NCBI GenBank assembly: GCA_030167865.1
Contig: JALAGF010001194.1
Coordinates: 1 to 45,730, forward strand
Length of the DNA: 45,730 nt
DNA from: Craspedostauros australis
Taxonomy: Eukaryota
Reading direction: 5' to 3'
Below, in pieces: positions 4,805 through 34,737 of the stretch (positions are counted from its first letter, which is position 1; each line of letters starts with the position of its first letter). The position numbers and the translations under genes are program-made. The notes beneath the pieces were generated by a model. That model was given only the letters and a program-made list of their open reading frames with translations. It did no database searches and had not been told where the DNA came from.

Positions 4805-5521
4805 ATGAGCAGTCATCGATGCCCAGCCGAATTCCTGTGCGCTCTCACAGGATTCATCATGACGGACCCCGTCATGACCTCCCAAGGCATTCACTTCGAG
4901 CGAGCTGCGATCCTCACATGGCTCGGCGCCATCAACGCTCCTGCCGCCTCCGAGCATGGCGCATGCAACGCGAAACAAGGCAACCAAGACAACAAGGCAA
5001 GTCGGTGGGCAGGCCGTTTGTGCCCGATCACTTTGTTGCCGCTCCTCGAGAATGACCTGCGGCGGGACGAAGGTCTCAGACAGCAGATCGAGATGTGGCA
5101 TCGCACCCAAGCATCGACGAACAATGCCACGTCCGATGACAGTCTCGATTCAAGACATCAGCAGCAGCGACAGCGACAGCAACAACAGCAAACCCATCAG
5201 GCAATGTTGCTCAAGCCGATGGCTGCTGGCAGATCGCCATCGGACACTTCATCCATCGTGGATTCCAACCAAGCCACTGCCAAGCTCCGACAAGTTCAGG
5301 ACAGGATGTCGATGATCGAGCAGGACTCCTTGGAGTATCTGCCACCAACCAACCCAAACGACAGAGGCCATCCTGGCATGCTCAACATGCACACGATCTC
5401 GCTGCTTGAAAGCCGAGGCTTTTTGGACGGTTCATCGGACTACAGGATTTCATCGCTACAGACTCTGCACATCCTCGATGATGTGGCTGCAATTTTGGAT
5501 CAACCTCTGATCCTCGATTGA
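4805..5521 (+). CDS. U-box domain protein (putative E3 ubiquitin ligase), 238 aa
   Basis: N-terminal U-box signature P-x-EFLCALTGFIMTDPV...G-x-x-FERAAILTWL...CPIT...L...LRQQIEMW. caccATG start context after a C/A-rich leader; poly-Q tract downstream of the domain. Confidence 0.85.
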   Translation: MSSHRCPAEFLCALTGFIMTDPVMTSQGIHFERAAILTWLGAINAPAASEHGACNAKQGNQDNKASRWAGRLCPITLLPLLENDLRRDEGLRQQIEMWHRTQASTNNATSDDSLDSRHQQQRQRQQQQQTHQAMLLKPMAAGRSPSDTSSIVDSNQATAKLRQVQDRMSMIEQDSLEYLPPTNPNDRGHPGMLNMHTISLLESRGFLDGSSDYRISSLQTLHILDDVAAILDQPLILD

Positions 5522-5945: not shown

Positions 5946-8330
5946 TTACGGGCCATCCGGTTCCGTTGCGTCTGGTATTCCCGTCACGGGCGTATCAATG
6001 CCAAAGTAGCGTGCCGCGAGCTGCAACGCCAGGAAACGCGAATAGTGCCGGCTCTGTGCCAGATTACCACCTTGGAACCAAAGGCCATCCACATTGGTCG
6101 GCTTCCACATGTTCCGCAACTCGCCCTGCCACGGCCCGGGGTCCTTGTGAGGCCGTCTGCCCCAGCCTAGCCCCCACGTGCGTCCGACAGATTTGGCGAC
6201 ATCGTTGCCGCAGATCTCTGCCACCCACTGATCCAGCGTGTCGTAGCCAGTGGCGAAGACGATGACGTCCGCAGGGATTGACTTCGTTTCATGTTCGCGT
6301 TCACTGTTGCTGCTGCTGTTGCTGCCGCTGCTGCTGCTGTTGCTGTCGCTGGTACCACCATCTTCTTCACCTACCGCATCGGCAGAATCGACGGCAACGA
6401 CAACTTCTTCCTCGCCGATGGAATGGACCGTGCCATGGACGATCTGGATTTCACCATCCGTGACGAGCTCGGCGGCGCCCATGTTGATGTAAAAGCCACC
6501 CCCTTCGGTCGCGCTCTTGGCGAACAGACCCGTCCCATCAGGACCGAAGTCTAGCCTGTATCCAGCCGCGATCAGTCCATCGTGCAGTTCCTTGTCCAGC
6601 TCCCTCATTTGATTCGTGACGGCCGTCCATCGTGTGAGGAGCTGCTTGAACGGCACGGTGGTGGCAACCAGATCGGCATCTTCGTGATCCAAGGGCGGGT
6701 GCTCGTTGTACAGCGGTCCCAATCCGTGCTTCAACACGGCGTCGGTAGACACGATCAGCGACGGCGATCGCTGTATCATCGTCACGGATTCGGCACCCTG
6801 CTCCCACACATCCTGGCAGATATCCAACGCGGAGTTGTTAGCGCCCACGACAACGACCCGCTTGCCCTTGAAGCGCTTGCCACCAACGTACTTGGACGAA
6901 TGCAGCATGGTTCCGCGGAAGGTATCGGCCCCTGGGAAGCTGGGCGTGCGTGGATGCGACGAATTGCCCGTTGCAAAGACTACGTGTCGCGCTCGCAACG
7001 TGCTGCGGACGCTGCCTGGCAAGGGACGGTTGTCCTCGTCGACTGGGCGAGTTTCGATCGCGATTTCCCATACGGGAGCTGCGTCATCGCCAGCTGCGCC
7101 GTTGGTGCCATCATCAGTACCTGGGACTTGGGTCGCCGACACCACCTTCGTGTTTGTTCGCACGTTGATGTCCATGGTCTTGGCGTACTGCTCCATCCAA
7201 TCGGCGATCTTATCTCTGGGGCAAAAGATGGGCCACGAGGGTGGAAATGGCATGTACGGCATGTGATTGTACCACACCGGGTCATGAAGATGCAGGCTGG
7301 GGTATCGCCGACGCCATGCGGCGCCTGGCTTGTCAGCCGCCTCCAAGACCGCGTAGTCAACACCCAGCAGCTCCAAGCGAGCGCCGAGCCCCAGCCCGCC
7401 CTGACCGCCACCAATGACGACCACGAAATGGTCCAGACCGTCGTTGTTCTTGAGATCGTTCTGAACAGCGACGCCATCTGAAGCGCTTGTTGATGTTGCG
7501 GAACTTTTCGCCGACACCTTGCCATTGCGCCGCCGATCCGGCCAATAAACTCGATCCGGCATGGGACCATGGATCGCACCGCGGATCCTGTGATCGCGAA
7601 CTCGAAACGGATGATCGTTGAGATCCATCAGCACGGTCAGCAATCGCTGGGCCTTCCATCCATCGTTGTTGGCATTGCCCGTCAACGGCTTTTCGAGACG
7701 AACAAAGGCCTTGCCCGTGCCAACGCTCGTCGTCAGATCGCACCACACGTCGATGGATGCAATTGCAAGTCCGTTCTTGGCGTTCGACGTGCCTTGTGCT
7801 CGCGCTACTGCCGTTGCTGCTGGCGCTGTTGCTGTTATTGTATCGACTGCGTACTTCGGTGGTAAAGGCGACGCAGCGGCTTCCAACATGAAATCCGCCG
7901 GCATGGACGGGGATGTCATCAGCTGCGAGATCGATGCCTTGCCTTCCATCGTGACGATATTCCACGAGCAAGCCACCATGTCTCTCCAGAAGGGAGTTTC
8001 GTGCGAGATGAACAGGTCGTCCACCATCTCGCTTATTTCATCGCTGTCGCCCACATTTCCTTTCCTTTTCGCCTTGACTTTGGCCGTCGCAGCTGTGAAT
8101 CGATTGATCCAATCGTCCACAACCTCGTTCACCGCTTCGGATGAGATTTGTGCGGATGCCGATTCCGCTGCTGCTGTGCTGCTGGAGGCAAGTGATGTCC
8201 TGTGATGCGTCGCTGCGCTGCTGACATGTGATGATGGCGCAAACGCTTTGCATCGCTGTTGCAGCACAAGTAGACACAGCACAGCGAGCAGCGTCTGCAG
8301 CCACATCCTGTCTCCGCACTTCCTCCTCAT
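5946..8330 (-). CDS. Flavin-containing monooxygenase (class B, type II FMO-like with N-terminal extension), predicted plastid-targeted
   Basis: FAD motif VIGGGQGG, then WRRRYPSLHLH, FMO fingerprint FRGTMLHSSKY, second nucleotide motif VVGANNSA and ATGY. C-terminal DPGPWQGELRNMWKPT...GGNLAQSRHYS; N-extension motif FWRDMVACSWNIVTMEG. Signal peptide ends CKA|FAP. First ATG at 8330, alternative ATG at 8306. Intronless. Confidence 0.9.
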   Translation of the reverse strand: MRRKCGDRMWLQTLLAVLCLLVLQQRCKAFAPSSHVSSAATHHRTSLASSSTAAAESASAQISSEAVNEVVDDWINRFTAATAKVKAKRKGNVGDSDEISEMVDDLFISHETPFWRDMVACSWNIVTMEGKASISQLMTSPSMPADFMLEAAASPLPPKYAVDTITATAPAATAVARAQGTSNAKNGLAIASIDVWCDLTTSVGTGKAFVRLEKPLTGNANNDGWKAQRLLTVLMDLNDHPFRVRDHRIRGAIHGPMPDRVYWPDRRRNGKVSAKSSATSTSASDGVAVQNDLKNNDGLDHFVVVIGGGQGGLGLGARLELLGVDYAVLEAADKPGAAWRRRYPSLHLHDPVWYNHMPYMPFPPSWPIFCPRDKIADWMEQYAKTMDINVRTNTKVVSATQVPGTDDGTNGAAGDDAAPVWEIAIETRPVDEDNRPLPGSVRSTLRARHVVFATGNSSHPRTPSFPGADTFRGTMLHSSKYVGGKRFKGKRVVVVGANNSALDICQDVWEQGAESVTMIQRSPSLIVSTDAVLKHGLGPLYNEHPPLDHEDADLVATTVPFKQLLTRWTAVTNQMRELDKELHDGLIAAGYRLDFGPDGTGLFAKSATEGGGFYINMGAAELVTDGEIQIVHGTVHSIGEEEVVVAVDSADAVGEEDGGTSDSNSSSSGSNSSSNSEREHETKSIPADVIVFATGYDTLDQWVAEICGNDVAKSVGRTWGLGWGRRPHKDPGPWQGELRNMWKPTNVDGLWFQGGNLAQSRHYSRFLALQLAARYFGIDTPVTGIPDATEPDGP

Positions 8331-9029: not shown

Positions 9030-11561
9030 TCATCGTGCGCTCATGGCGATCGATTTGTTCTTGTGGGCGTTGTACTGATGCGACTTCACGCCCAGTGCGA
9101 CGCCCTTCTGGCCAAAGTCGTACTCCATCCGGATGGGCGACACGACGCGGCAGTCGGGGCACAGGATGTACTTGGCATCATCGAGCGACATCAGCTCGAG
9201 GTTGCAGGCGAAGCAGCTGGTGGGCATCACGTTGCCTGTTGTCATCGCCCTGTACATTTCGTCGGCGGGTCGGAGCGGTTCCATCACGCCGGGTGCCACT
9301 TCGATGGAAGGGATGGGCGCCAACGCTGTCGCCGTTGTTGTCGTTGTTGCCGACGTCGTCGCAGTTGCACTCGCTGTTCGCTGTGGCTGGATGGACCTCG
9401 ATGGCGGTGTCAGCGATCGCGTTGCGCTTGGGCGCGGGCTGACCGTTCGTTGCCGTTGCTGTATCGCAACTATGCTAGGCATGCGGCGGTCATGGACGTT
9501 GCAGCTGTTGGAGCGTCTCCTTCTCTGCGGCATCGGCGATGTAGGGGCGCTTGTGGTTGGCCCCGAAATCAAGTCGTCCTGAATGCTGGGCGTGCGACAA
9601 GCGCCCACTGTCGTTCGCGGTCTGGATCGCGGTGAGATGATTCGTTCCGTCGCTCTCATCGTGGCTGTTCTGGTGCCAGCGACGTCGCTGCCGGAGTTGA
9701 CACTGTCGGCCACGGAGCCGTCCGTGTTCGAACTTTCGTCGCGCGCATTGCCTGTGACATGGGTTTGTTGGCGATTGGCAATCTGCATGCTCCTGCGCAC
9801 GGATGCAGGTGGCAGGATCCGCTCGGTGATAACGCGGCCCGTGTCTTCTGATCCAAAGCTCGACGGGGAATGTACCAGTCGGCGCTTTTGGGAAAGGGAT
9901 GGCGTTTGCCGGGCAATGAGTGGACGGTAGACGCTGGGGGCCTCAATACCGGCATACAACGAATGGCGGCGTGGTGCGGTGAGGTTTTCGACTTCCACAG
10001 TCTCGTGATGTTGCGGGGCAGTGTGCATTTGATGCAGATTCGGAGCCACTGACGGAAGTGGGGATCGTGGCGGCAGTGACATGGTCGGTTTGGACTTGTT
10101 GCTGGTTGGAGTGGACGGTTCCGAACCCGTGGGAGAGGGCATCGGTTTCCCTGAAGATCGCTGTTGATTCGAGGCTGGCCGTCCCTGTGAATGCGCCTGC
10201 GAATGTGACGATGATGCTGACGCAGACGTTGCTGAAAGCGCTTCTGCTGGGCTTGAATGATCCACAAGATATTCGTCTTCGGCCACCAGTGTTCTATCAG
10301 TCTCGTCAGTATATCCGGCATCCGGACCATCGTAATCATCCGCATCGTGCGCAAACACGGACTCCTCGCAGATGCGATCAGATCCGGAGGACGTTTCTGA
10401 GTCGCGATGCGCAACGCGCCCGCCTCTGCCAGGATACTCCTGCTGCCGCTGCTGTTGCGGACGAGAGCGATGGAATTGCACCGGTTGCTCGTTGCCACTA
10501 TCCGTGTGTTGTTTGAACGGAGCGCGCGTTGTTGTGGTGTGAGCATTGCGCATGCTGTTAACGTCATGGCGCTTGATTGGGGAGATGGGCACTAACTCGG
10601 AGTGATTGGACATGGAGACGTGCCTCTCTTTGAGCGCCGCATCTTCATGCAGCAGGCTCGTTGAGAAGAAGGGGCGCGACATGGCCTCAAAGAGCGAGAG
10701 CTGCGCTTCCGTCGCATCGAACTGGTCACTCTGGTTGTGATGCTGCTGCTGCGAGTGATGGTTGTGGTTGTCCTGTTGTTGTTCCTCCTCATCATCATCT
10801 TCACGAACGGGCAGCACCCTGCTATGGTGGCTCGTGGCGATATCGACGGCGTACCTTTGTGGTTGCCCTCCGGTTCTGAGAGCGCCGCTGCGCGTTGAGC
10901 TCGTCCTGTAAGATCGACGGCTGCCGTTGCCCTCTTCGTTCACATTGCGACGGCCGCCATGGGTGGATTCCCACCCGATGGAACCGAACAGAGCGACTGT
11001 GTTGATGCTCTGCGTACCGATGCTGTGATTCGACACCTGGCGTCGGAAAGCAGGCCGCTCGGTGGCGTACATGGGAGGGAAGTTCACGGGATCTTCAACC
11101 TCCATGGCACGCTCCATGAAGGTTCTGTTTTCGGTTGAGAAGATGATGGGAGTTGTGATCTCGCTCACGTCTCCCAGACTGGTGCCGCTGTAGCATCGCC
11201 GCATGGTCGTCTGCTCTGCCTCATCGTCGTTGGTGCTGTACTGCTCTTCGTACTGAATCATTGTGGGGACGAAGTTGATATCATCGACGGATCTGCTGTG
11301 GTTCCTGCTTTTCTGACGTCGTCGGTGAAGCTGTGATCGCTTCTTGGAATGCTGCTGCTTCTGCTGCGATTGCGGCTGCTGCTGCTGCGACTGCTGCTTG
11401 TTCCGATTGCCGTTTGGAAAGGCGCCCAGGATCATGTTGCGAAAGCGAGCCTTCGTTGTACCGCCGCCGTTCTTCTTCATCTTTGGTGACCGTTGTGGCT
11501 GCGATTGAGGCTGTTGCCGAAGTTGTGGGGATGGCAATGATGTGGGTTGGGAATGCATCAT
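9030..11561 (-). CDS. 843-aa mostly disordered protein with C-terminal CxxC...CPxC zinc-ribbon domain
   Basis: Long uninterrupted ORF rich in Q/S/P/R. C-terminal globular segment IEVAPGVMEPLRPADE...CFAC-x14-CPDC...GVALGV. C/A-rich leader upstream on the minus strand. Confidence 0.8.
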   Translation of the reverse strand: MMHSQPTSLPSPQLRQQPQSQPQRSPKMKKNGGGTTKARFRNMILGAFPNGNRNKQQSQQQQPQSQQKQQHSKKRSQLHRRRQKSRNHSRSVDDINFVPTMIQYEEQYSTNDDEAEQTTMRRCYSGTSLGDVSEITTPIIFSTENRTFMERAMEVEDPVNFPPMYATERPAFRRQVSNHSIGTQSINTVALFGSIGWESTHGGRRNVNEEGNGSRRSYRTSSTRSGALRTGGQPQRYAVDIATSHHSRVLPVREDDDEEEQQQDNHNHHSQQQHHNQSDQFDATEAQLSLFEAMSRPFFSTSLLHEDAALKERHVSMSNHSELVPISPIKRHDVNSMRNAHTTTTRAPFKQHTDSGNEQPVQFHRSRPQQQRQQEYPGRGGRVAHRDSETSSGSDRICEESVFAHDADDYDGPDAGYTDETDRTLVAEDEYLVDHSSPAEALSATSASASSSHSQAHSQGRPASNQQRSSGKPMPSPTGSEPSTPTSNKSKPTMSLPPRSPLPSVAPNLHQMHTAPQHHETVEVENLTAPRRHSLYAGIEAPSVYRPLIARQTPSLSQKRRLVHSPSSFGSEDTGRVITERILPPASVRRSMQIANRQQTHVTGNARDESSNTDGSVADSVNSGSDVAGTRTATMRATERIISPRSRPRTTVGACRTPSIQDDLISGPTTSAPTSPMPQRRRRSNSCNVHDRRMPSIVAIQQRQRTVSPRPSATRSLTPPSRSIQPQRTASATATTSATTTTTATALAPIPSIEVAPGVMEPLRPADEMYRAMTTGNVMPTSCFACNLELMSLDDAKYILCPDCRVVSPIRMEYDFGQKGVALGVKSHQYNAHKNKSIAMSAR

Positions 11562-17810: not shown

Positions 17811-18788
17811 ATGAAGCGTGTCATTGCGCCGGAAAGTGATCCGTTCGACGCGAGCGGCGAAGACGATTACAGCTCCTACCTGCTGCAGCAGCTGTCCGCC
17901 GAAGAGTCCGTATTCGGCACCATCGCCGGCAGCAAGCACAAAGGCATTGCGCCGCCCATCGACGACGACAAGTTGGATGACAATCAACGAACCGTCGAAC
18001 AACAACAGCAACCGAACGAGCAGAAAGAGGAACAGCCCGAGGCGGACGGCGACGCATCCTTGCGACAACAGGACAGCGACGCATCGTTGGTGGCGCTGAG
18101 CAGCAAGAGGCACGCCAGACGGAGGAGGCGGGCACGCAGAGGCAGAAGGGCCCGCAGCGGCGACAAGACCGGAAAGACCGTGACGTTGGTGAAGCTGGTG
18201 CCGGAGAGCGAGACAGCCGAAGAGGAGAAACCGGTCGCGGAGCAAGTGCAGCGGCGCGACGATCTGGAGGATACCAAAGTCGTCGATCTCAATCGCCATC
18301 CGAAGACCGGGTACGTGAAGCTGAAGGAGCCGGCCGCCGCCGACATCGCCATCAATATTGGACACGAAGAAGAAGAGGAGAAGCCGCAGAAGGTCGACGA
18401 GCCCGCACGCAACAGCAGGAAGGCGCGCGACGACACGACGCAGGTCACCGAAGAGAAGACCATGGACGAGGATTTCAGCGTGTCGACGATGCGGACGTAC
18501 GGCACGTATGGGACCTACGGAACCTTGCGCACCGCCGGACTGGATGAGGACCAGACCGTGCTGCTGGAGGAGATGATGAAGGAAAAGAAACGGAGGAACA
18601 AGGGCGCCGGCGTGCTGGCGAGGGCCTCATCGTGCGTGCAGGATCTCAAGGAGGAGATCACGGGGACGTACCAGGATACCGTGGCGAGCATGTCGCAAGT
18701 GTGCTGCGCCTTCACGCTGACGGATAAGGATCTGCGCGTGGTGTCGGGGCACATCCGTCGTTCGCGACGCGAATTCTCGAAAGTGTGA
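17811..18788 (+). CDS. Hypothetical acidic/basic disordered protein with conserved C-terminal helical domain shared with the neighbouring gene
   Basis: ATG at 17811 (the ORF track starts at TTG 17802) and strong GC3 bias. C-terminal EEITGTYQDTVASMSQVCCAFTLTDKDLRVV aligns without gaps to the C-terminus of the 19567-21063 product. Confidence 0.8.
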   Translation: MKRVIAPESDPFDASGEDDYSSYLLQQLSAEESVFGTIAGSKHKGIAPPIDDDKLDDNQRTVEQQQQPNEQKEEQPEADGDASLRQQDSDASLVALSSKRHARRRRRARRGRRARSGDKTGKTVTLVKLVPESETAEEEKPVAEQVQRRDDLEDTKVVDLNRHPKTGYVKLKEPAAADIAINIGHEEEEEKPQKVDEPARNSRKARDDTTQVTEEKTMDEDFSVSTMRTYGTYGTYGTLRTAGLDEDQTVLLEEMMKEKKRRNKGAGVLARASSCVQDLKEEITGTYQDTVASMSQVCCAFTLTDKDLRVVSGHIRRSRREFSKV

Positions 18789-19566
18789 GACAACGAGCGA
18801 TGGGCTCTTGAGAGAAGCAACGAGATGAGAAAGGGAAAAGCAAGCGATATGATGTGATATGATACGATATGGCATGGTATTGTATTGCACATATGTGCAT
18901 CCTGGTACCCATGGAGAAAGGCCATGGAGGAGCAAGAGAAAGGAGTGAGCTTTCGCGTACGCATAGGAGGTGCTACAGCATGTTGTGATAATAATGAATG
19001 TGGATGATCGACATGAGGCAATAGAAACAGTAAAAGCAAAGATGGTTGGAAGACAACGAACAGGGAATTATATTATACAAGAGTGCTCCACTCTAATATC
19101 CCAGCTGGTTGGAACGTGAATTGTTGTCGCCACACGATTGGCGAGTGCTTGGTTGTCTCATTATTTGCAGTGCTCTATGGTACTGTCCGTCACTACGTAC
19201 ACGCTCAATGTTGTGGTGGTTCAAGTAGAGCGCGACAGCACGGGCAACGGTGATGTGGAACTAATGTATTAGGTATGTATGCCATGCTTCCTTTTCACAT
19301 GGAATGTTCATACGGTACTATTATTATACATACTTTCATTCATAGTATAGATCGTTCTCGTGCTGTTGTATTTTTCTCTGCGTCTGTCTGTCTATCTGTA
19401 GCACTATCATTATATAATACCACACATGTAAGTACTTGGCTATCGTTGCGCATGCAGGACGTAATGAATCACAACACATTCCAGTCCAGTCCGTATACCA
19501 ATAGAGTGAAGTGCCCCGCTCAGTGTCCAGCTCAGTGTCCAGCTGAGTACCCTCCTCTAATACGAG

Positions 19567-21063
19567 CTACGCATCGAAATGCGTCTTGGCTCTGTCGATC
19601 TTCTTGGTGACGGCCCGGATGTCGTGGTCCGTGAGGGTGAAGGCGTTGAATACCTGATCCATGCTGACGACGGTATCTTCGAAGGCGCCCGAGACCTCCT
19701 CCCCGATCTTGCGGATGAAGCGGGCCCCCGAGGCGCAGTTGAGGATGGAGCCAGCGCCCGCGGGGTCCTCCTGTTCGTACGCGGCTGTGAGGACGGTGGC
19801 CGTGCCGTCATCGTCGAAGGTCGCCGTGTCGTTGGCCGTGCTGCTGACCGTGCGGTCGTTGTCCGTGTCGGTCTCTTCACCGGAGGGCAGGGTGTCAGGA
19901 GTGTAGGTGGTGGTGCCGGAGCGCTTCTTGGAAGGCTTTTCCTTGGAGGACTTGTCCTTGGATTTTGACTTGATGCCGAGGAATCCCCTATCGTTGCGGC
20001 TCTTGGTGAGGTTCTTGAAGAAGCCCCTGCTCTTGCGCTTGTTCTTTCGTGGCGAGCCCTCGCCCTCGTTGTCCGCCTCCTCGTCCGTCATGCTTTCCGT
20101 GGTCTGGGTGTCCTTTGAGTTGGTGCTGAGCGATGGATCGTGGGGTTTGGTGGCTGGAGATTTTGGAGTGGAGCTGGGCCGGTTTTCCGTCACACGGATG
20201 ATGGGTGAACCGGCCGGAGAGCGGGGCGTGGAAGCAGCCGGAGACACAGTCGAAGAGGCACGGGTGGTTCTGCTGGGCGTGCGATGCGGGTTGGCGTCGA
20301 AGGTGGCGTCGCCGATGCTCTGGAGAGCCATTGTGGCCGAGGCTGTGGCAGCTGTGGTTGCGCTGTGATCAAGGCTGACGTCGTTGGGATTGGTGCTGCC
20401 GCTGGTGGTGCTGGTAGTATGGCTGGTATGGCTCGTGTTGAGAGCCTTTGAGGCTGATTTGTGACGAGATCTCCGCCTGGCAGAGTTGACGGCTTTGGTC
20501 GCTTTGGGTGATCTGGACTTGGACGTTGGCGTTGCGGTGGACGCCCTCGTTGGTGAAGCCGCACCTGAGGACGCAGCAGCCGCAGCAGGCGAAGACTCAG
20601 CAGGTGGAGCCTCCATGGGTGAAGCAGACTTGGGCAGGGGCTGCATGCCATCCAGCTGGCCCCTGTAGGCTCTGCGACGATTGAGCAACCTCTGCTGCCG
20701 CTGAGCATCGTACTGCGCCCGCTGCGGCGGATCTGCCAGCACCCTGACAGCCAGCACGACCGCATCCAGCCTCTGCTCCGTGGTGGTGCGCTGGGCATCG
20801 ACAACATCCTCGCTGGTCTGCGAAGTGTCGTTGCCCAGGTCCGCCAGGATGCCAAAGAGCTCGCTCCTGCGCTCGAAGTACGCCAGCTGGATCTGCTCGG
20901 GCGTTGCCGCCACAGAAACGCGCAGCACGTCGCTGTACAGATCAGCGAAGTCGCCGAACGCGCGGTCGATCAATCCGAGGTCTTGCAAGTCCATTGTCTC
21001 TGCTGTTGTCGTTGCTGCTGCTGCTGATGGCTGGTGCAGTGAGGGTGCTGTCGCTGAAGCCAT
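19567..21063 (-). CDS. J-domain-like protein lacking HPD, with S/T/P-rich linker and conserved C-terminal domain, 498 aa
   Basis: N-terminal J-fold pattern DLYSDVLRVSVAATPEQIQLAY...AVRVLADPPQRAQYD with no HPD. Lys-rich segment, then C-terminal EEVSGAFEDTVVSMDQVFNAFTLTDHDIRAV. Confidence 0.85.
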   Translation of the reverse strand: MASATAPSLHQPSAAAATTTAETMDLQDLGLIDRAFGDFADLYSDVLRVSVAATPEQIQLAYFERRSELFGILADLGNDTSQTSEDVVDAQRTTTEQRLDAVVLAVRVLADPPQRAQYDAQRQQRLLNRRRAYRGQLDGMQPLPKSASPMEAPPAESSPAAAAASSGAASPTRASTATPTSKSRSPKATKAVNSARRRSRHKSASKALNTSHTSHTTSTTSGSTNPNDVSLDHSATTAATASATMALQSIGDATFDANPHRTPSRTTRASSTVSPAASTPRSPAGSPIIRVTENRPSSTPKSPATKPHDPSLSTNSKDTQTTESMTDEEADNEGEGSPRKNKRKSRGFFKNLTKSRNDRGFLGIKSKSKDKSSKEKPSKKRSGTTTYTPDTLPSGEETDTDNDRTVSSTANDTATFDDDGTATVLTAAYEQEDPAGAGSILNCASGARFIRKIGEEVSGAFEDTVVSMDQVFNAFTLTDHDIRAVTKKIDRAKTHFDA

Positions 21064-21201
21064 GCCTGCCCTCCCCCTGATTTGCGAGGTCCTGTCGGTG
21101 TCAAGTTGGCGCCAAGTTGTTGTGAATCTCGGCTCTGTGTGCTTGCGACAACTGCGTTGCTATGGACGTGAGGTGAATCAGGTCCTTCGTTAGAACTCAG
21201 C

Positions 21202-21226
21202 TCAATCCAATCCAATCCAATCCAAT
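21202..21226. repeat. (TCCAA)n pentamer microsatellite upstream of the J-like gene
   Basis: tcaa tccaa tccaa tccaa tccaa t. Confidence 0.85.
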
Positions 21227-23188: not shown

Positions 23189-25246
23189 ATGAGTTCCGCA
23201 TCCGAACCACCCACTCTGCGCTGTCGCTTTTCGTTGGATGCGAGCAACGGCGGTGGTGGCGATGATGATGGTGGTGACAATGCCGCAGACAGCGACAGCC
23301 ACGATGGACATGGACAATCCCCCACGGTGGCATTGCAACAGGAACAGGGAAAGAAGTCGTCCTTCCTCATCAACTGCGCGCAACTATCGAACAGCGAAGA
23401 TGGCGAGCACACTCGTGCAGCACCAGCAGCCTCTTCCAAATTGACACCGCCGATTGAAAGTGGCTGCTTCATTCTGCCCACGCCAGCGCAGCTCAGCATT
23501 GACAATGTCATGCTTCGAAAGGATTCCAACAAGGCCAACGGCAGCAGCAACGGCGGTGGTCACGCATCACCGACGCAAACGCCAATGCAACAGCAGCCCT
23601 TCGTGCTCGGTGGCTTCCAAATTATCAGCAATGCGCGGCAAGTCGAGGTGTACACTACGGATATGTCTGGCAAGGAATCCTACGTCATGACGGCAAAGGG
23701 CATTACCTATTATCCACCTTCTTCTGACACTGACGCCGATACTGGCGATGGTGGTGACACTGACAATCAAGGTGATAGTTCCAGCACAAGACCATTGCTG
23801 AATAAGGCAGTTTGTGTCATACCCGGTGGTCCCAAAGAAGTCAAGGTGCTCAGAATCAAGCTGCTTAGTTTGCGACACGATAATGCGCCACCGTCGCGGC
23901 CATCATTATCGAAGCCCGCTCTTATTCGGTTGGTCAAAGTCACGGCGAGAATCCCAGAACCCAAAACAGCAAAATCGAATGTAACGACATCTGCACGAGT
24001 TGCATCAAGAGCAGCGGCAGCATTCGGGGGCATGTCTCCGTCAATATTCACGCAGGGGCATGGCATGGGTGCGGGTGGTCCTGCGAATGCCATGTCAGCA
24101 TTGCAGACATCACCGACCATGGGCATGCTGCAACAGCAGTTCTTGCTTCAACAACAACAACAACAGCATCAGCAGAGTCATAGTCATGAACATGGCCATC
24201 AGCAACAACAACAACAGCATCAACTGCACTATCAACAGCAGCAGCAGCAATATCAACAGAGAACTTCATCTGCGGCGCTGAATGCAACAAATGGGATAGA
24301 CAAGGAGGATCTAGGCGCCGCCATGACGACCATGTCCATTCTGGCGCGTTCCACAGAGGAGAGAATGGAGAAGACTGTTGCGGAGCAGTTCAACAAGATC
24401 ACGCATGCGCTTGCTCACTCATCTCAGGCTGCCATCCTGTCATCCGCCAAGGCAACCTCCAATGCTTCTGCAGCTGCGATTGCGTCAGCCCTGGAACATC
24501 ACACGGAACGGCTGGAAGGGCTCTATCGGAAAGAGGAGGTCGCTCAGAAAAGTGACGAGACGCTTGAAAACGCATCCCAGCAGCAGCAAGAATATTTGGA
24601 AGCGCTGTTTGTAAGGCTGCAAACGCAGCAAGAGCAGCAGTTGAAATCGTTGTTCGCAGAGCACGTGTCGCCATTGAACAAGCTGATCGTCGAACAGTCG
24701 GAGTTGCTGCGAGCGCAAGCCAAGGAGCTGGAGGCAGAAAAACGACGCATCGCCGACCTCCAAGAAGCCATGGTGCGGTCCATGGAGCAACAAACGAAGC
24801 TGCAATCCAGCGTCCAGAGCATGATGGTGGCAATCGAGGACATGCAGCGCAAAAAGGAGCAGATGATCGACCTGGATGACACGCACATCATCCCAACGCA
24901 ATCGGCGTCCTTGCTGGACGGTGGTCCCGTTCCAAACACCTTCGGCGGTGGTGGCGGTGCGTTTGGATTCAGCAATGGCAACAGAAACACGGACACATCC
25001 ACGACGCAGCTGGCGTGGATCGACGATGATGCGCCGAACCTGCTGAATGACACGACCATCCTGCAGAACCAGACTTGGGCGGACCAAACCATGGCGACGC
25101 TGCCTTCGTTGGCAACCGCGAGATCCCCGTCAGATGGAAACGAAAGCGTCCTGAATCGAACGAAATTGCTGGGGCTGGGTGAAGAAGATGATGGAGACAT
25201 GAACAGAACCATGTTCAGCTTGCGAACCGTACCAGGAGAGAAGTAG
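23189..25246 (+). CDS. PAAT/C10orf88-like N-terminal domain protein with poly-Q and coiled-coil region
   Basis: ATG at 23189. Motifs FQIISNARQVEVY, YVMTAKG and LRIKLLSL resemble the PAAT (C10orf88/DUF4506) conserved blocks as I recall them. Heptad-rich region at about 24350-24860. Confidence 0.6.
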   Translation: MSSASEPPTLRCRFSLDASNGGGGDDDGGDNAADSDSHDGHGQSPTVALQQEQGKKSSFLINCAQLSNSEDGEHTRAAPAASSKLTPPIESGCFILPTPAQLSIDNVMLRKDSNKANGSSNGGGHASPTQTPMQQQPFVLGGFQIISNARQVEVYTTDMSGKESYVMTAKGITYYPPSSDTDADTGDGGDTDNQGDSSSTRPLLNKAVCVIPGGPKEVKVLRIKLLSLRHDNAPPSRPSLSKPALIRLVKVTARIPEPKTAKSNVTTSARVASRAAAAFGGMSPSIFTQGHGMGAGGPANAMSALQTSPTMGMLQQQFLLQQQQQQHQQSHSHEHGHQQQQQQHQLHYQQQQQQYQQRTSSAALNATNGIDKEDLGAAMTTMSILARSTEERMEKTVAEQFNKITHALAHSSQAAILSSAKATSNASAAAIASALEHHTERLEGLYRKEEVAQKSDETLENASQQQQEYLEALFVRLQTQQEQQLKSLFAEHVSPLNKLIVEQSELLRAQAKELEAEKRRIADLQEAMVRSMEQQTKLQSSVQSMMVAIEDMQRKKEQMIDLDDTHIIPTQSASLLDGGPVPNTFGGGGGAFGFSNGNRNTDTSTTQLAWIDDDAPNLLNDTTILQNQTWADQTMATLPSLATARSPSDGNESVLNRTKLLGLGEEDDGDMNRTMFSLRTVPGEK

Positions 25247-25599: not shown

Positions 25600-28500
25600 A
25601 TGGCATCAAGTTTATGGACATCGCTGAGCCGAGTGTGGAGTCCGCGCCGACAGGCGACAGCAGAACGCGAGGAAGAAGTGAGTGCTGGTGACAAGCAGAA
25701 AGAGTCCCTGTTGGCTTGCACGAGCCAGTCCAGCCAGAGCGAGGAGCACGGACATGACGAGCACTCGCAGAAGCACGGCGAAAGTGAGGGTTGCGGTCTC
25801 ACACATCAGTCTGTGGGTTCAGCAGACGAAGAGGGGGATTGCCACCACAGTGATCACAACGACAGCGATAACGACGAAGACCGACGCACAAGCCGCGTGA
25901 GCTGGGCAGATCAGACACAATCGCAGCTGCAAGACCTCACCATGTCTCCGCAAACCCGCAGGCAGCTGAGGGAGATCACATCGCCCCGCAGGTCTCCGAG
26001 ACACGGCAGCAGCAAAGGCAAAGGCAGTCCGCGGTCGCGTTTGAAGGCTGTCAAGCGCAGATCAACAGCAGTAAGGAGGCCAACATCACCAGCCGCACCA
26101 ACTCGATCAGCAGCCCAACGCAGTGGCAACAAGAGCACTGGCAGTACGAAGGGCTCTTCACGGTCGACCGTCGCAGCAGCCAACCAAGGTGGTTGGATTG
26201 GCCGATCCGCAAACAGGGCGTCTCCAACTCCGCCAGCCTCCAAGAACAACGTCAACAGCACTGCTGAGAGCACTGTTGAGAGCACTGCTGATAGCAAACC
26301 CAACCAACGTTTGCAAGCACATCGAAGCTCAAGGCCGCATGGGGATGGCGAGGCTGGTGCTAAGCCTATTGCAGAGACAGGACTTGCATCTGCATCATCC
26401 AACCAGCAGAGCAAAAGCAAGGCCAAGGCAACTGCCGAAGTTTCCAACTCAAAACTTGCATCCAAGAGCGAGAAGGAGGGTGTCCAAGCCAATAGCAACA
26501 CTGATAGCAACACTGACAAGCAAGAGGCCAAGCTCCAGCTCTGGCAAACCATCGACCGCGAGCTGCGTGTCAACATCGGCAACTCCCTGCGCTGCGGCAT
26601 CTGTCTCTCCACCGTCATCAATCCCTACTGCACTCCCTGCGTGCATGTCTACTGCCAGGACTGCCTGTACAGCGCCATCCGCGCCACGTCCAGATGCCCC
26701 GAATGCAAGACCGAAGTCACGAGGCGCTCCTGCCAGCCCATGCCCCACATGGATGGTCTGGCAGCGGCCTACAAGCAAGCGCTCAAGGAGTTCGCCCTCA
26801 CGCCGTCGCAGTACACCCGCTCCTTCACAACCCTCACGCAGGCTGTGGGTGGCGACAGCGATGAGAGCGACAACAGCGATAATGACGACGACGACAATTC
26901 GAATGGAGGCGAAGGCATCCAACCACCTCCTGGGATTGCGGGACGCCCGTCAAAGAAGGCGGATCTGATCGAGGATCTCGAGGAGATGTCACCCTCCCTC
27001 GCGGTCCTGCTGCAAAAGACCCGGAACCTGCAGATGGAGAACCAGGAGATGGGCATCCCCGCAACCAACGCGGAGAGCAACTACACGATCGCCAGCAACA
27101 ACACAACCGCGAACATGGAGACGCAGGAGATGCTGCAGACTGCCGTGGATCGATACGATACCGCCAAGGCTTGGCAATCCGCCTTCGACTCGCAGACGGC
27201 GGAATCGCCGCCCGTTGAACCCATCTTTGTCCAGGAGAATCACAGCGTCGTGCGTGCCAACGGCAAGGCCTTGAAGCATACGCTGGAGGAGGAGGAAGAA
27301 CAGACGCAGCAGAACATCCCTGGGCAGCAGGAAGCGTCCCACGATATCGACTCCACCGATGACAATCCAGCCATGACCTTCGGCTTTGACTACGACGACG
27401 ATTCTGAGAATGACAATGGCAATGAAAATGAAGACAACGAGCATGGCAATGGAAACGATGCCGAAGCTGAACCACCGGTTGTGATGGACAATCGTCCGCC
27501 GGCAACACTGACAACGCCGACAACACCCACCAAGCCTGTATCCATCCTACGAAAGTCTGATTCGCCATCCTCCATGGGCAGCGACAAGAGGCCATCTCCA
27601 ACGTCTGACGATCCACAACACATGGCCGACAGATGTCCTGATATATCGCCCATGGCTGACCTTGGAGAGTCAGCATCTCCTCATACCGGCGATACCGACA
27701 ACGACAACAACAACAACAACATGCAGGGCGGCAAGCTTGCGAAACAGGCAACATCTTCGTCTTCTGCTGGAAACAACAACAACACCACACTTGCCACAGT
27801 AGAATCGACCCCAACATCATCCAAGACATCACCGAGATTCATTTCGCAGCCACCGGGCGTTGCTGCTACGAACACCAGCACGATGCCAATGCAAGGCAAG
27901 CCGCTCATGATCATGACAAGAACCGATGCCGTCACAACCGACATCTCCGCCGTCGATTCGCATGTCGTATCGTCGCCTTCCAAATCCGTTGCGTCTTCCA
28001 TCTCCGCTTCGCCAGGCCATCCCAATCTACGCACATGGGACCAGCATCAACATGCCAACGAAGATGCTGACGATGATCTTGGTCATGATTACAGCGAGAG
28101 CATGGTGTCCGTGCCGTTTGATGACAACGACTCCGATCGCACAGTCCCAATGGAGGGCAGCATCGAGCAACTGCGAATGAGCCTGGACGGAGCCTTTGCG
28201 GATGATGAAGCGAGAGAGCAGCAGGTGGCTGATACCTGCTGTGGCATCAACTCCGCCGATGAATTGACTGCGCCGTACGGGACAGCCACACAGTCGCAAG
28301 AAGAGAAGGAGTCCAGCCAACAGAAGGACAGAGGTGAAACAGCAAAGGCACAAACAAGGGCGCAGGCAGCCGAAGTCAAAGCAAATCAAGAAACAAAATC
28401 ACAACCGGAGCTGACGCTGAAGCTGAAGCACGACCCGCCAAGTATCCATCCCAACATCACAACGACGCGCGGAAGCTCACGCAGTCGTAGTCAAAGTCGC

Positions 28501-31172
28501 ACACGCAGCGCAACGAAAACGGCAACAACAACGGCAACGACTGCATCTTCATCAGTGCCACAGTCATCATCAGGAAAGGCAACAGCACCAGGATCCAATG
28601 CAGGCGAAAGCACCAACGTCGAAGAGAGCGGCATAAGCAAAACCACCCAACAACACAGCAAGAAACAGGGCACAAAAAGCAGGAAAACGTTGTCAAAGGA
28701 GTTGAACTACTTCACGTCGCCGTCAGGTCGCATCAAGATGGCGGTGCTGGAGAAAGATGGCAACACAGAGGAGACCAGGCAATCCACGGAGTCAGAATGC
28801 TCCCTGCCAAGTGCCGATGATGCGATTGACGTCATGAAACCACCATTCGAATCGGACCTTTCGCCAATCCCAACCAAACGCTCGGCCAATGCAAAGGTCT
28901 TTACCAACTCCAGCAATGATCACAGCCACGATGACGACACGGATGGAATGGATCGCAAGATGCCGGCAAGAGACGATGATGAGTCACTTGCCGTCCAAGA
29001 GAGAGAACACGAGACACAAGATGGCGCCTGCATGATTCCTGTTGGAACCATCGTCGAAGTCCAATCTCGTACATGGCCCGGCGTCAACAAGATCGGCGGT
29101 GTTGCACGCATCATCAAGGCCAACAGTGTTACGAGCACCTACGATGTGCGGTACGTGCTGGGAGGAAGGGAACTGGATGTGGATGCTGTGTTCGTCCGCC
29201 CTCACGATGTCGAAGCTGCGGCAAGCATCATACCGGTTGCTCCCCAAGCTGCTCGCACTGCCGCTGCCACACCCACCGTTGCTCGCACGTCCAGAGCTTC
29301 TCGTACGGATGCAAATGTCGCTGCAAATGCAAATGTCACATCCACGTCAACAGGCCAAGGAGCGAGCCAAAGGAACCCATGTCGCCGCTCACGCAGAGCA
29401 CCGCGACCACGCGACTTTCTGGATCCAGAAGGCAACGACAAGAAGAAAAAGAGCAACGCTGCTGCCGGATCGGTCAATCTTCTGTTGTTTTCACCATCCA
29501 ACAAAGACCTTGTGGCGAAGATCAAGTCGCCCGATCCAGACGGCCTGCCGCCGGAGTTGCTGGCGCAGCTCGCCAAGGATGGATTTGATACTGCGGGGCT
29601 TGTGCCCGGGGCGCCATCAAACGTAAACAACGATGGCAGTAGCAGCAACGGCGGTGACGGAAATGGGCCATCCACAGCAAGAGGGCGAAAACGCCGCGCT
29701 ACAACGAAGACAAGCCGTTCCAATTCAAGGTCGGCGAAGAAGCCCAGAGTTCAGAGGGATCCAGAGCCAGAGCCAGAAATCACGGCCGAAGTGGCTGCTG
29801 CTGCTGCTGCTGAAACGTCCCCCGCAAGCACGACCAGGTCATCTGCGCGACGCAAACGTGGCCGCTCAAGCGCAGACACGGTGGCAAGCGCAACTTCATT
29901 TGCTGCAGCCGCTGCCAAGGCAATTGCATCCGTGAAGGCGAACAGTGGGAGGACACCGAAGAACAAGAAGGCAAAGCATGTCACCAAATCGCTGATCTTT
30001 TCCACAGTGCCGAAATTCACTCGCGCCCAGCAACAGAAACTGGCGCAGCGACGGTACCAGCAGTTATTTGAAGAGCACAAGGTGATTCACGTCCTGCAAT
30101 CAAGCCTGAACGATGCTGACATGAAACTGCTTCGATCTCTTGTGACCAAGACGAAGAATTTAAGCGGTAAGTTTGTGCTGTATTGGAATGTGACATGAAT
30201 ACATGTGCGTCGTGTTTGTGGAGAACTGCTGCGCACAGCACTTCCCCGCGACATCGTCCCATCGCCCTGACACCTTTTCCTCTTCTCTATTATACTTGTC
30301 TTTGTCATCGTTCATCTCTTGGAATCCATGGCTTGATCCATTTTCGTTCCGTTGCTGTCTCTCTCCATATTTTTCTTCAAACAGTCCAACTTCGAATCTG
30401 CGAGAACTTTTCGAAGAACATTAGTCCCACCATCTGCGTCATGCCAGTTGCTGAACAAAAGAAGCAACGTCGGCCCCAAAGGAAAGGAAGGAAACAAAAG
30501 AAAAAAGCGGACAACGCCACTAACAGACTGACCGCGAATTCTCGCACCCTCAAGGCGATGCGATCTGCGTTGGATGGGATCCCAATCGTATCACCTGATT
30601 GGATATACCGTCTCAGCAAGGCGGGCAAGGTCTCGGCTCCGGATTCTGAGGAATGTATCCAGACGTTGCCAACTAAAACAGACGGCGTCGAGTCCATGAC
30701 TACATGTGGCATCACGAGCACAGCCGCGAAGCTCCAGTGGGCGAAGGAGCAGCAGGCCGCTGATGAGGACACAAATGCTCAGGAGATCATCGCCCCGCTT
30801 CGCAACTGCAGCGTGTTGCTGATCGCGTCCTTTGCGAAAGAGAAGCGCAGCGATATGCACACCCTCATCACTGAGGCCGGCGGTGACGTTATTAACACTG
30901 CTTCAGCCGCGGTGAGCAAGCTGAACGCACTGTCCGGCGAAGAATCGTCACAGCGAATTGTGCTGCTGTGTGATGATTCGGCATCCACGGTACCATCAGG
31001 CATTGCGAAGGCTGTGGAGCAAGCAACTGCGAAAGGGCATGGGGGCGACATTATGGTCGTGCATTCTGCGTGGGTGTTTGATTGCATTACGTGCAGCGCC
31101 ATGTTGGATGCCAAACTGTTCGCGCCAAAGAGCAAGAAGGGAAAGCATCTCTGGGAGATGTGTCAAAAGTAG
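25600..31172 (+). CDS. RING + Tudor-like + tandem BRCT protein (BRCA1/BARD1-like E3 ligase); 2 exons (25600-30166, 30385-31172), about 1784 aa
   Basis: C3HC4 RING CGIC...PCVHVYCQDC...CPEC at 26593-26706. BRCT1 VLQSSL...RTLKAMRSALDGIPIVSPDWI; BRCT2 PLRNCSVLL...LITEAGG...VVHSAWVFDCI. A phase-1 GT-AG intron joins the two ORFs in frame (G|TC = Val). Confidence 0.85.
30167..30384 (+). other. Spliceosomal intron (218 nt) within the first BRCT repeat
   Basis: Donor GTAAGT at 30167; pyrimidine tract followed by ACAG acceptor ending at 30384; splicing restores the reading frame. Confidence 0.85.
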
Positions 31173-31371: not shown

Positions 31372-32550
31372 CTAATTGGAACTGTCCGGAACGATCTTGG
31401 GTGTGTCCGGATCCCTGCCATACTCGTTCCAGCTGCCATCGTAAAGCAGCGGTTTGTCGTACCCGCACTCCTCCATGGCGAGAGCGACGTGGCAGACGGA
31501 GACGCAGCTGCCGCAGGTGAGCAGCACCTTGGACTTATCATCTGGCTCTCCAATGCCGGCATCCTTCAGAATTGCACGCAGATCCTCGGCGGGCTTGAGC
31601 TTCAACGAGTTGTCGGACTCGGTTAGCGATGAGTACGGCACGTGCGTGGCGCCGGGCATGTGCCCCTTCGATGCGAACGACGATCCTCGTGTATCGATGA
31701 TGTTCGTCTTTGGTTGCGCGGTATCTTCGTCGCCATTCTGCTCGATCATCTCGACCACCTGCATCATATCTACAAAGCGTTCCTTGGCATCGTTGGCAAC
31801 AGGATACGCGGCTTCGTCCGCCTTGTGGAACAGGTCCTTGGCCCAGACGTCGTAGGATTCCATCGGCGTTGCGTCAACCTCCCCACCGAGCTCGATCCAT
31901 TCATCCAAACTGCCTTGCATCAGACCAACCCGCTGGTTGGGCCCTCCGTACGTTCGGATCAAGTACCACGTTCTCGGTGTAAAATGACAGCCTTGCCGTC
32001 CGTAGACGATGACTTGCTTGTCCTGCGTGACACCCATCGCATCCATAGTCGCGGCGAATAGCGAGGGTGGCGGGAATGTGGAGTACAGATCCTTAGGATT
32101 GAGATCGGGGTAGAGCGCCTTGGACGTGACGATGTCCTCCAGGTCGAGGAAGTGCGATCGCGGGATCCTGGGACCCTCGAGGTATTCCGCACGTCCCTTG
32201 CGACCGCCCTTGTGGAAGTAGGAAGCATCGATGAAGACGACATCATCTTTGTCGCTTCCTTGGAAGGCATCGATGCATTCCTCGACGGTCCACAGGTTCT
32301 TGTTCTTTCCTGCTGCTGCTGTTGCTTGTGAAGATGATGCTGCGAACAGTCTCATTCCCGATTCAGCTGCAGCGACGCCGCTCCTTCTCCATCCATTATG
32401 CATCGCAGCGGTGAACGATCTGGAGCAAAAGGCAGAAACCATGGTCATGCCCATGGTCATGCTCATGCTCGTGGATGTGACCGCGACGGCAACAGTAAAG
32501 GCGAAGAGGATGGTGATAACCCGGCTGCGTGGTCTAGCCGCCAAGATCAT
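31372..32550 (-). CDS. Tandem-rhodanese sulfurtransferase (3-mercaptopyruvate/thiosulfate sulfurtransferase family), probably plastid-targeted
   Basis: IDAS...EYLEGPRIP (rhodanese RIPG-like), R-x-W in domain 1, IIDTR...GHMPGA, catalytic loop TCGSCVS and C-terminal LYDGSWNEY. Hydrophobic signal peptide ending VSA|F. Confidence 0.9.
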   Translation of the reverse strand: MILAARPRSRVITILFAFTVAVAVTSTSMSMTMGMTMVSAFCSRSFTAAMHNGWRRSGVAAAESGMRLFAASSSQATAAAGKNKNLWTVEECIDAFQGSDKDDVVFIDASYFHKGGRKGRAEYLEGPRIPRSHFLDLEDIVTSKALYPDLNPKDLYSTFPPPSLFAATMDAMGVTQDKQVIVYGRQGCHFTPRTWYLIRTYGGPNQRVGLMQGSLDEWIELGGEVDATPMESYDVWAKDLFHKADEAAYPVANDAKERFVDMMQVVEMIEQNGDEDTAQPKTNIIDTRGSSFASKGHMPGATHVPYSSLTESDNSLKLKPAEDLRAILKDAGIGEPDDKSKVLLTCGSCVSVCHVALAMEECGYDKPLLYDGSWNEYGRDPDTPKIVPDSSN

Positions 32551-33029: not shown

Positions 33030-33830
33030 CTATGCTTCGAACTTCTCCCACTCAGAGTCATCACTTCCATTGCCGTCGCTGGTGTTGTCGTCATCCATCT
33101 TGGTGGCACGATCAACAATATCCTCATCATCTGCTGCTTCTTCTTCTTCGTTCACATCTTCCACTTCGACCTTGGTTGTGTCGGCGTGTGCCGCCAATTG
33201 TGGTTGTCCCTCTTGCTTCTCTCTTGCTGTTTTGGCTTCAGCGACAGCCAAACCATCACCTGTGACTCTGCTCGAAGTACTGCTGGAGGCACCATCGCGG
33301 ACGTGGATGACACGACGACCGCCATCTTCACCCGGATGCTTCTTTGGGAGCGTGATGGTCAACAGCCCATCCGACAGCTCGGCGTCCACCTTCTCCATGT
33401 CCAGTCGCGAATCACGCAGGCGGAATCTCTTCTCAAAGGATGCAGAGTACACACGGTTGTCTCGCTTTCCTTTGATCTCCAGCACCATCGCATCCACATG
33501 GTCATCCGGCTTCAACGAGATGTCGATGTTGTTCAAATGGTATCCAGGAACATCAAGAGTGATGACGAAGTTGCAATGGCTGTCACTGTCATTGCCGCCA
33601 TCAGTGATCTTGATGGATGGGACGTCGATCTTGGATGTGGATGTGTTGTTGCTGTTGCTGGTGGTAGCCCCGGTGGCGGTGGTGGGTGTTTCCTTTGATG
33701 TTGGTGCTTGGCATGGATGACGATGGCGGTGGCGCATGGATGGGGAGGGGCATGGTTGAGCTCCCATCATGCAAGGCGAGCGTTGACGGAGGAAGGGATG
33801 GGGTGGGTGTTGTTGCATCACGAAAATCAT
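33030..33830 (-). CDS. HSP20: Small heat-shock protein (HSP20/alpha-crystallin domain) with long acidic C-terminal tail, 266 aa
   Basis: ACD motifs FVITLDVPGY...IDISL...LEIKGKR...FEKRFRL...VDAELSDGLLTITLPK, followed by an I-x-V-type motif (VIHV). aaccATG start at 33830; the longer ORF-track N-terminus looks like UTR. Confidence 0.9.
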   Translation of the reverse strand: MIFVMQQHPPHPFLRQRSPCMMGAQPCPSPSMRHRHRHPCQAPTSKETPTTATGATTSNSNNTSTSKIDVPSIKITDGGNDSDSHCNFVITLDVPGYHLNNIDISLKPDDHVDAMVLEIKGKRDNRVYSASFEKRFRLRDSRLDMEKVDAELSDGLLTITLPKKHPGEDGGRRVIHVRDGASSSTSSRVTGDGLAVAEAKTAREKQEGQPQLAAHADTTKVEVEDVNEEEEAADDEDIVDRATKMDDDNTSDGNGSDDSEWEKFEA

Positions 33831-34737
33831 GGTTGCTTCCTTTTTCTGTTTCTGTTTCTGCTTGCGTTTGCGATTTGTTGCTTGCTGCTTGTTGTTGTGG
33901 TTGGAATGTGATTGTGAATATTGTTTGAGTTTGGAATTGTGAGAGGAAGGAGGAGCTGGCGATTGCATCTGCACTTTTGCGTTGCTTTGTTGGTGTGTTG
34001 GTGTGTTGGGGCTGGTGTGTGTGTTCCAACAAACAACTCGCATCAGCCGCACAAACAACTCGAAAAGTGAGCGACAGAAATGTGTGAAACATGCGCCTCA
34101 TCTTCTTTTCGCATCGATGGTGATCCAAAGAAGAGAATGGAAGCGTTTCGATGATTGCAACCCTTGACCCAATCGACTACTACTGGTTGTATTCAGTGGA
34201 CTGACTCAGTCCCAACACCTATTCCAAACGTGACTTGATTCGTGTTTTTTGAGGCGATTGGCCATTCCTTGGCTCCCCACATTTCTCACAAAAACCCAAA
34301 CTCGGCACGTCAGAACAATCACACCTCGCGGGAAATGTAATAGGGAGAGTGGAAAGAATAAACGCAAGGTGGTGGCATCGAAGAAGCCACGAATACTGGC
34401 ACGCACACTCTCAGATTACTAGTGCGAACGAGTAATGAGGCATCAATTGCGACGTGGCAGGTGTGATCACCACATTGAAGACGAATCCAACTTCGACAGC
34501 TCGGAGGATGAGAACACACCAGAAAACCCCAACGCGGAGAAGACAAAGACGATACAAAGGCAAAGGCGGTGCTGGTTTCACGCATCATACTCGTGCATAT
34601 GAATATCGTATCGCGATCGTCACACGATCAGGTTGCCAGCTACTTTCTTTCCATAAATCGCATATGATAATCAACTATCAACGATTGACCAACAAATCTA
34701 TCTCACAACAATATCAACTCTGACTTGATCGACGGCC

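Follow-up and report, generated by a model that had tools for sequence, protein, structure and literature searches.

Do two neighbouring genes that converge on each other, and whose products end in the same protein domain, form a dedicated two-protein module, or are they two members of a wider family that happen to lie side by side? The question is raised by a stretch of 45,730 nucleotides of DNA from Craspedostauros australis (GenBank assembly GCA_030167865.1, contig JALAGF010001194.1, positions 1 to 45,730), which we refer to as the window, and in which gene A on the plus strand and gene B on the minus strand are arranged tail to tail (Table 1). An original prediction, made from the letters of the sequence, had proposed that a C-terminal domain of 42 amino acids is shared by the two products, and that this domain could make the pair a two-protein module. 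The first half of this interpretation stands, in that the domain is real, conserved and without a name, and B does carry a J-like domain; the second half is not supported as it was put, for the domain is not private to the pair. We consider it reasonably probable, as an explanation of the whole, that A and B are old paralogs within a lineage-restricted family that is defined by a C-terminal hairpin, with a local duplication behind the pair and a docking role for the hairpin included in the account. Diatom genomes contain many lineage-specific genes of no known function, and one such family becomes sharply defined here: the novelty lies in a variant of the J-like theme that is specific to one lineage and has an undescribed C-terminal hairpin of about 50 amino acids with three invariant residues, a domain that annotators can name and experimenters can use as a handle.

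A C-terminal domain shared by two convergent genes

The two copies of the domain lie exactly where they had been predicted, at 18651-18776 on the plus strand and at 19576-19701 on the minus strand, and their cores are identical at 22 of 42 positions without a gap. The translations also agree with what had been described around them: each core is preceded by a GAG motif (...NKGAGVLAR... in A and ...DPAGAGSIL... in B) and by a Thr-rich stretch, and is separated from the stop by 3 residues in A and 2 residues in B. At the level of DNA the cores share 74 of 126 bases, and these identities are spread unevenly over the codon, with 25/42 at first, 32/42 at second and 17/42 at third positions, which argues for a constraint acting at the protein level. 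In a scan of the locus for inverted repeats, only the coding arms 18650-18724 and 19628-19702 could be aligned (75 nt, 72% complementary). The view that the conservation is one of protein rather than a recent event in the DNA is thus upheld.

Outside the core the resemblance extends to an alignment of 84 amino acids by BLASTP, with 31 identities (37%), one gap of 2 residues and a composition-adjusted E-value of 1e-13, and the Smith-Waterman score of A against B is 142, as compared with 47.7 +/- 7.6 (maximum 73) for 500 shuffles, or z = 12.4. Both proteins are mostly of low complexity, and one could therefore suspect a match by chance or by composition. Such a match is difficult to reconcile with the adjusted E-value and the z-score, with the 147 credible family members among the matches listed, or with the three residues that never vary among them (see below); with at least 147 relatives in hand, we ruled this candidate out and attach next to no weight to it.

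The domain defines a family

An HMMER profile was built from the segments of A and B (alignment A1) and run exhaustively against 1.84 billion cluster representatives, a search of the kind that the original prediction had proposed. It matched 153 representatives at E <= 1e-3, of which 44 reach E <= 1e-10. The family is counted here in clusters at 50% identity; 150 of the 153 matches were listed, 147 of them are credible, and all family counts that follow refer to the matches listed. Three proteins were set aside as repeat-protein artefacts (P0066, 2754 aa; P0078, 1990 aa; P0142, 3962 aa), since they reach E <= 1e-3 only through 7-13 summed sub-threshold stretches; the C-terminal end of P0078 is made of HAFT[VP] repeats. 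The word-indexed database supplied 39 additional closer relatives, and a word-indexed search with residues 236-325 of A, over a length range of 178-569 aa, gave no match at E <= 1e-3. The profile recovers a large family, for which Pfam has no model. Since the domain is common to at least 147 clusters, J-containing and J-less, sharing it is a sign of family membership and provides no evidence for a dedicated module of two proteins, contrary to what had been proposed.

The position of the domain is as characteristic as its sequence. It ends no more than 5 residues from the C-terminus in 102 of the 147 members, and no more than 20 residues from it in 122. An N-terminus of the J-like type seen in B is present in 99 members and absent from 48 (phmmer, E < 1e-3), so that in two thirds of the family, B included, the hairpin is joined through a long disordered linker to a J fold lacking the tripeptide His-Pro-Asp (HPD), and in a minority, to which A belongs, nothing but low-complexity sequence precedes it. 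Among the J-less members 27 look full length (Met start, at least 140 aa), and the other 21, which are short or without an initial Met, may be fragments. The records carry labels such as 'hypothetical protein', 'J domain-containing protein' and 'curved DNA-binding protein CbpA', and the only source names found on them are Cylindrotheca fusiformis, Cylindrotheca closterium and MMETSP transcripts. Judged from these records the hairpin family is lineage-restricted, with named members that are all diatoms. No description of this hairpin/J-like family was returned by a full-text literature search, the scope of which excluded subscription journals and sequences embedded in figures.

The family alignment comprises 184 rows over a core of about 50 residues. 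Three residues, Glu9, Asp16 and Phe28, are invariant in 184/184 rows, and Gly12, Gln23, Val24, Thr29 and Ile42 are each found in at least 173, within the consensus [DE]-E-[IV]-x-G-x-x-x-D-T-x-x-S-x-x-Q-V-F-N-A-F-T-L-x-[DE]-x-D-I-x-A-V-x-x-R-I-D-K-A-K-R-Q. Both A and B hold the three invariant residues as well as the core Q-V-x-x-A-F-T-L, and both have the domain at the C-terminus and predicted to fold as a two-helix hairpin, which places them in the family.

Two further features accompany the hairpin. Just upstream of it, many members carry an acidic, Thr-rich stretch with recurring motifs of the type D-D-x-T-x-T-[FLY], exemplified by the DDDTRTY repeats of P0012, TLDETLTLDD in P0035 and TYGTYGTYGT in gene A, and found also in P0008, P0046 and P0030; in the window it occupies 18477-18560 and 19780-19880, and it may represent a phospho-regulated or linear-motif region. 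In addition, a Cys is located about 8-15 residues before the invariant Glu in A (18627-18632), in B (19741-19746) and in most of the main clade, in many members within the context G-x-F-S-C-I-x-G-S-R, and this residue could be a site of lipidation or of redox chemistry.

Structure and identity of the hairpin

AlphaFold2 models the shared segment confidently as a two-helix hairpin in both proteins, in keeping with the helical, amphipathic character that had been foreseen for it. For B, with an alignment of 108 sequences (A3), the mean predicted local distance difference test score (pLDDT) of 10-residue blocks is 83-93 over residues 451-498; for A, with an alignment of 19 sequences (A2), the mean pLDDT is 85.2, and values of 92-97 are obtained in the last 50 residues. 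Hydrophobic positions are a/d-spaced on both halves of the hairpin. According to our own reading of the alignment, Glu9, Asp16 and Gln23, each 7 residues from the next, would lie together on one face of helix 1.

None of the searches connects this hairpin to a known family. Pfam holds no model for it, and gene A has no Pfam match at E <= 10; Foldseek with the hairpin model of A retrieves a single PDB entry, at E = 9.4; the hairpin profiles find nothing significant among PDB sequences; and the ESM Atlas gives no usable match for residues 410-498 of B. For the public member P0183, the same atlas offers DnaJ-type leads only, with scores of at most 0.78 and template modelling (TM) scores of at most 0.28. 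The segment is thus the unnamed domain it had been taken for. Could it nevertheless be a known domain in disguise, either a degenerate annexin repeat or a duplicate of helices III-IV of the J domain? Annexin A4 (PDB 2zoc, 9ga6) is indeed the best PDB sequence match of the two-sequence profile (E = 0.072), with a stretch similar to annexin L-x-x-D-L-K-S-E-L-S-G-x-F-E and a short motif, hydrophobic-x-x-hydrophobic-K-x-E-x-S-G-x-F-E-D, in common, and the hairpin profile makes recurrent weak secondary matches to the J-like region (0.2-5.7 bits, in 12 proteins). The annexin match, however, is non-significant, covers only about 20-30 residues of a repeat of about 70 aa, worsens to E = 0.19 when the profile is enlarged to 19 sequences, and involves stretches that fail when taken alone; the model consists of two helices rather than the five of the annexin repeat, and Foldseek recovers no such fold for it from PDB. 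As for an internal duplicate of the J-domain helices, a profile-profile comparison of hairpin and J-like domain with hhalign returns a probability of 1.3%, in a different register. We rejected both candidates, and with Pfam also silent on the hairpin a known domain seems very improbable.

By analogy only, the model can be compared with the generic helical-hairpin oligomerisation modules, which pair into four-helix bundles and likewise consist of two amphipathic, a/d-spaced helices connected by a tight turn. Unlike purely structural bundles, the hairpin strictly conserves the polar residues Glu9, Asp16, Gln23 and Asn26, which is unusual for a bundle of that kind and suggests a specific partner.

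A J-like domain without HPD in gene B

The N-terminal part of B, residues 28-138, is modelled by AlphaFold2 as a helical domain with pLDDT above 90, and Foldseek places only J domains at the top of its PDB matches, among which the five best have target-normalised TM scores of 0.57-0.72 and a probability of 1.00; the accompanying E-values are weak, a consequence of the query length of 498 residues. At the sequence level B scores 15.1 bits (E = 0.026), over profile positions 38-63 only, with the Pfam DnaJ model (PF00226), the cut-off of which is 27.8; the same model is matched at E <= 0.01 by 77 of 108 aligned relatives, the best of them at 6.1e-8. The HPD tripeptide, which occupies the helix II-III loop and is required for stimulation of the Hsp70 ATPase, is missing from the first 200 residues of all 138 J-like members, B included. 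Given its absence, the model of B is that of a J-like domain with a J fold, as had been predicted, and not of a bona fide or functional J domain; Pam16/Tim16 is a known example of a J-like protein without HPD.

The family thus resembles J-domain proteins (Hsp40/DnaJ) in the helical J fold of B and 99/147 members, and it resembles class-C-like J proteins in that a J-type domain is joined to a client or partner domain that is unrelated to it and specific to the lineage. It differs from J-domain proteins in the missing HPD, in a helix II that extends over 27 residues in the model, and in the score of B below the Pfam cut-off. The C-terminal hairpin, with no match in Pfam or PDB, is also unlike the known accessory domains of J proteins. 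In a subset of B-type members (P0016, P0018, P0019, P0021 and P0023) the sequence R-R-H-S-P-E-G-A-T-I precedes the J-like domain; it is absent from gene B. Between J-like domain and hairpin, the linker of B (residues 139-446) has pLDDT values mostly below 50 and consists to 84% of disorder-promoting residues, and orthologs of B can be aligned at the N- and C-terminal ends.

Gene A, unlike J-domain proteins, has no J-type domain at all, and the description of its remainder as disordered holds: its first 240 residues are of low complexity and 77% disorder-promoting in composition. An Arg-rich cluster at residues 99-117 of A resembles a nuclear localisation signal. Neither protein contains a hydrophobic segment, the maximum Kyte-Doolittle mean over 19 residues being 0.69 in A and 0.77 in B, and on this basis both read as proteins without signal peptide or membrane segment; since both also have basic clusters, they are probably soluble and nucleo-cytoplasmic.

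Phylogeny and origin of the pair

Trees were built from the 48 core columns, one of all 184 rows and a more careful one of 65 rows. In the former, A pairs with P0009 (Shimodaira-Hasegawa-like approximate likelihood ratio test, SH-aLRT, 97), is grouped with three further J-less members, P0032, P0035 and P0065 (support 86), and falls within a clade of 82 rows that includes B and its orthologs (SH-aLRT 88); in the latter, the grouping of A with P0009 has a support of 100/97. A and P0009 share 68% of core positions, as compared with 73% for B and its best relative and 52% for A and B, and states specific to A, namely TGTYQDTV, SMSQVC and a His and an Arg in helix 2, recur in P0009. The hairpin of A is by these measures nearer to P0009, which comes from elsewhere, than to that of B, and it is because A is closest to P0009 and not to B that we regard A and B as old paralogs. 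The most economical view places A in a J-less subfamily, which would have separated from the B-type genes before the organism of the window and the source of P0009 parted. The ancient similarity that had been claimed for the pair is thus consistent with the trees as well as with the conservation at the protein level and the scan for inverted repeats.

How, then, did the two genes come to lie tail to tail? Probably the arrangement was left behind by an inverted local duplication, of which only the constrained coding core can still be recognised. A would have arisen from a B-type gene in this event, either because the 3' part alone was kept or because the J-like part was lost, and would since then have been maintained as a separate subfamily. 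Most simply, the pair itself goes back to a local duplication long ago, and its members are neighbours as a relic of that event, which need not imply a joint function.

One could also speculate that A is a partial copy, taken from the 3' end of a B-type gene and now in decay, without function of its own and with a reading frame that is open by chance. This would be in line with its low-complexity N-terminal 240 aa, for which phmmer retrieves nothing homologous from the 150 family matches listed, and with its departure from the consensus at four near-invariant positions. A decaying gene would not, however, be expected to keep an open reading frame (ORF) intact for 325 codons, to agree with its paralog at 17/42 third but 32/42 second codon positions, or to have its own specific states in common with P0009, with which it groups so firmly that a conserved subfamily is indicated; other J-less members, moreover, have similar low-complexity sequence upstream of the hairpin, basic and then acidic. 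We therefore find the decay of A quite unlikely.

Several observations weigh against our explanation of A and B as old paralogs of a hairpin-defined family. When A and B are forced to be sisters, the tree is 30.5 log-likelihood units worse, with a p-value of 0.082 in the approximately unbiased (AU) test on the 48 columns, which leaves room for a younger duplication followed by fast divergence of A. With its 83 aa, P0009, the closest relative of A, may be no more than a fragment. The taxonomic range is based on very few named records, and the J-less members may in part be incomplete gene models. A deviates from the family at the near-invariant sites Asn26->Cys, Ala37->Val, Asp43->Arg and Ala45->Ser, so its behaviour may differ from that of the rest. 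Finally, it is by inference alone that we assign a binding role to the hairpin model, and the same applies to the ideas of nuclear localisation and of a four-helix bundle.

Possible role of the hairpin and of the A-B pair

Within the explanation that we favour, the hairpin would act as a module for protein-protein docking or oligomerisation. A lone hairpin leaves the hydrophobic a/d seam half exposed, and should for this reason associate with a second hairpin or a conserved partner, in which case the invariant Glu, Asp and Gln at a spacing of 7 residues could form a polar ridge that determines partner specificity. The J-like domain, which without HPD cannot stimulate the Hsp70 ATPase, would serve as a scaffold or regulator, as in other J-like proteins, and not as an activator of Hsp70. 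If the hairpin does assemble paralogs or dock a conserved partner, the family would represent, within the regulatory repertoire of J proteins and Hsp70, a branch specific to diatoms.

The partner could in principle be the neighbour. Such a reading holds that the hairpins join A and B in a dedicated heterocomplex, that the J-less A is a decoy or adaptor for B, and that the tail-to-tail linkage has been selected for co-regulation. Precedents exist among J-like proteins that lack HPD, as in the heterodimer of Pam16 with Pam18, and the reading gains from the same confidently modelled, amphipathic hairpin in A and B, from stop codons that are only 778 bp apart, and from the coexistence of J-less and J-containing forms throughout the family, which fits the logic of a regulator plus an effector. 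Nevertheless, a domain found in at least 147 clusters does not mark A and B as a pair, the very hairpin that would make the contact departs in A, at several near-invariant positions, from that of B and of the family, and a local duplication explains the adjacency equally well. A complex prediction for residues 409-498 of B with the C-terminal 90 aa of A scored 0.01 against a mark of 0.34, but was made without alignments or controls and counts neither way. An A-B heterocomplex is possible but not favoured, adjacency being the sole tie that is specific to A and B, and we rate the dedicated, co-regulated form of it as unlikely.

A more far-reaching version, which we put forward as a long shot, is a diatom-specific code of homo- and hetero-oligomerisation written in the hairpins, by which J-less proteins of the A type would co-assemble with HPD-less proteins of the B type, the resulting pseudo-co-chaperone scaffolds would tune the recruitment of Hsp70 or of another conserved partner in nucleus or cytoplasm, and A and B, tail to tail, would count as one conserved, co-regulated unit of this network.

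Layout of the locus and its surroundings

The features of the two genes are collected in Table 1. With tblastn, no copy of the domain other than those of A and B was detected in the window, and no second J-like region was found in it, the ORF of A and the sequence upstream of A included.

Table 1 Features of genes A and B in the window
Feature	Position	Strand	Remarks
Gene A (P0001)	17811..18788	+	Single-exon ORF, 325 aa, intact; J-less family member
Arg-rich basic cluster, A residues 99-117 (KRHARRRRRARRGRRARSG)	18105..18161	+	Pattern scan
Region of A resembling B, residues 241-322	18531..18776	+	Acidic/Thr-rich lead-in, then hairpin domain; BLASTP E=1e-13, tblastn
Predicted helical hairpin of A	18546..18782	+	AlphaFold2; helices 11-66 and 70-89 of 90-aa segment from 18516
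42-aa core, A copy	18651..18776	+	Contains the family-invariant Glu, Asp and Phe
Intergenic spacer, stop to stop	18789..19566	.	778 bp, presumed 3' untranslated regions; two halves mutually dissimilar
Gene B (P0002)	19567..21063	-	Single-exon ORF, 498 aa, intact; J-like-plus-hairpin family member
Predicted C-terminal hairpin of B, residues 447-497	19573..19725	-	AlphaFold2; helices 447-475 and 479-497
42-aa core, B copy	19576..19701	-	Peptide quoted in the original prediction
Linker of B, residues 139-446	19726..20649	-	Low confidence, Ser/Thr/Pro/Ala-rich; basic clusters 196-204 and 339-347
HPD-less J-like domain of B, residues 28-138	20650..20982	-	pLDDT >90, Foldseek

Tandem repeats flank gene B on both sides, with units of the CAGCTCAGTGTC type at 19513-19545, just past the stop, and an AATCC microsatellite at 21200-21226, before the start.

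Elsewhere in the window, five of the large ORFs scanned (9030-11561, 23189-25246, 34738-36285, 42507-43361 and 44077-44757) have no match in Pfam. An ORF for an HSP20/alpha-crystallin protein (33030-34043, minus strand, E = 9e-11) lies about 12 kb from gene B. The other neighbours are a U-box protein (4805-5521, plus), a flavin-monooxygenase-like oxidoreductase (5946-8330, minus), a rhodanese-domain protein (31372-32550, minus) and a GTPase of the MMR_HSR1 type (37403-38743, minus). Within 25600-31172 on the plus strand, an ORF of 1532 aa contains a C3HC4 RING finger at residues ~330-375, and a BRCT-domain ORF of 325 aa (30195-31172, plus) directly follows it with an overlap of 4 bases; the two together look like one BRCA1/BARD1-like gene that is split by a short intron or a change of frame. 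By their predicted domains, the ORFs around A and B are typical eukaryotic genes.

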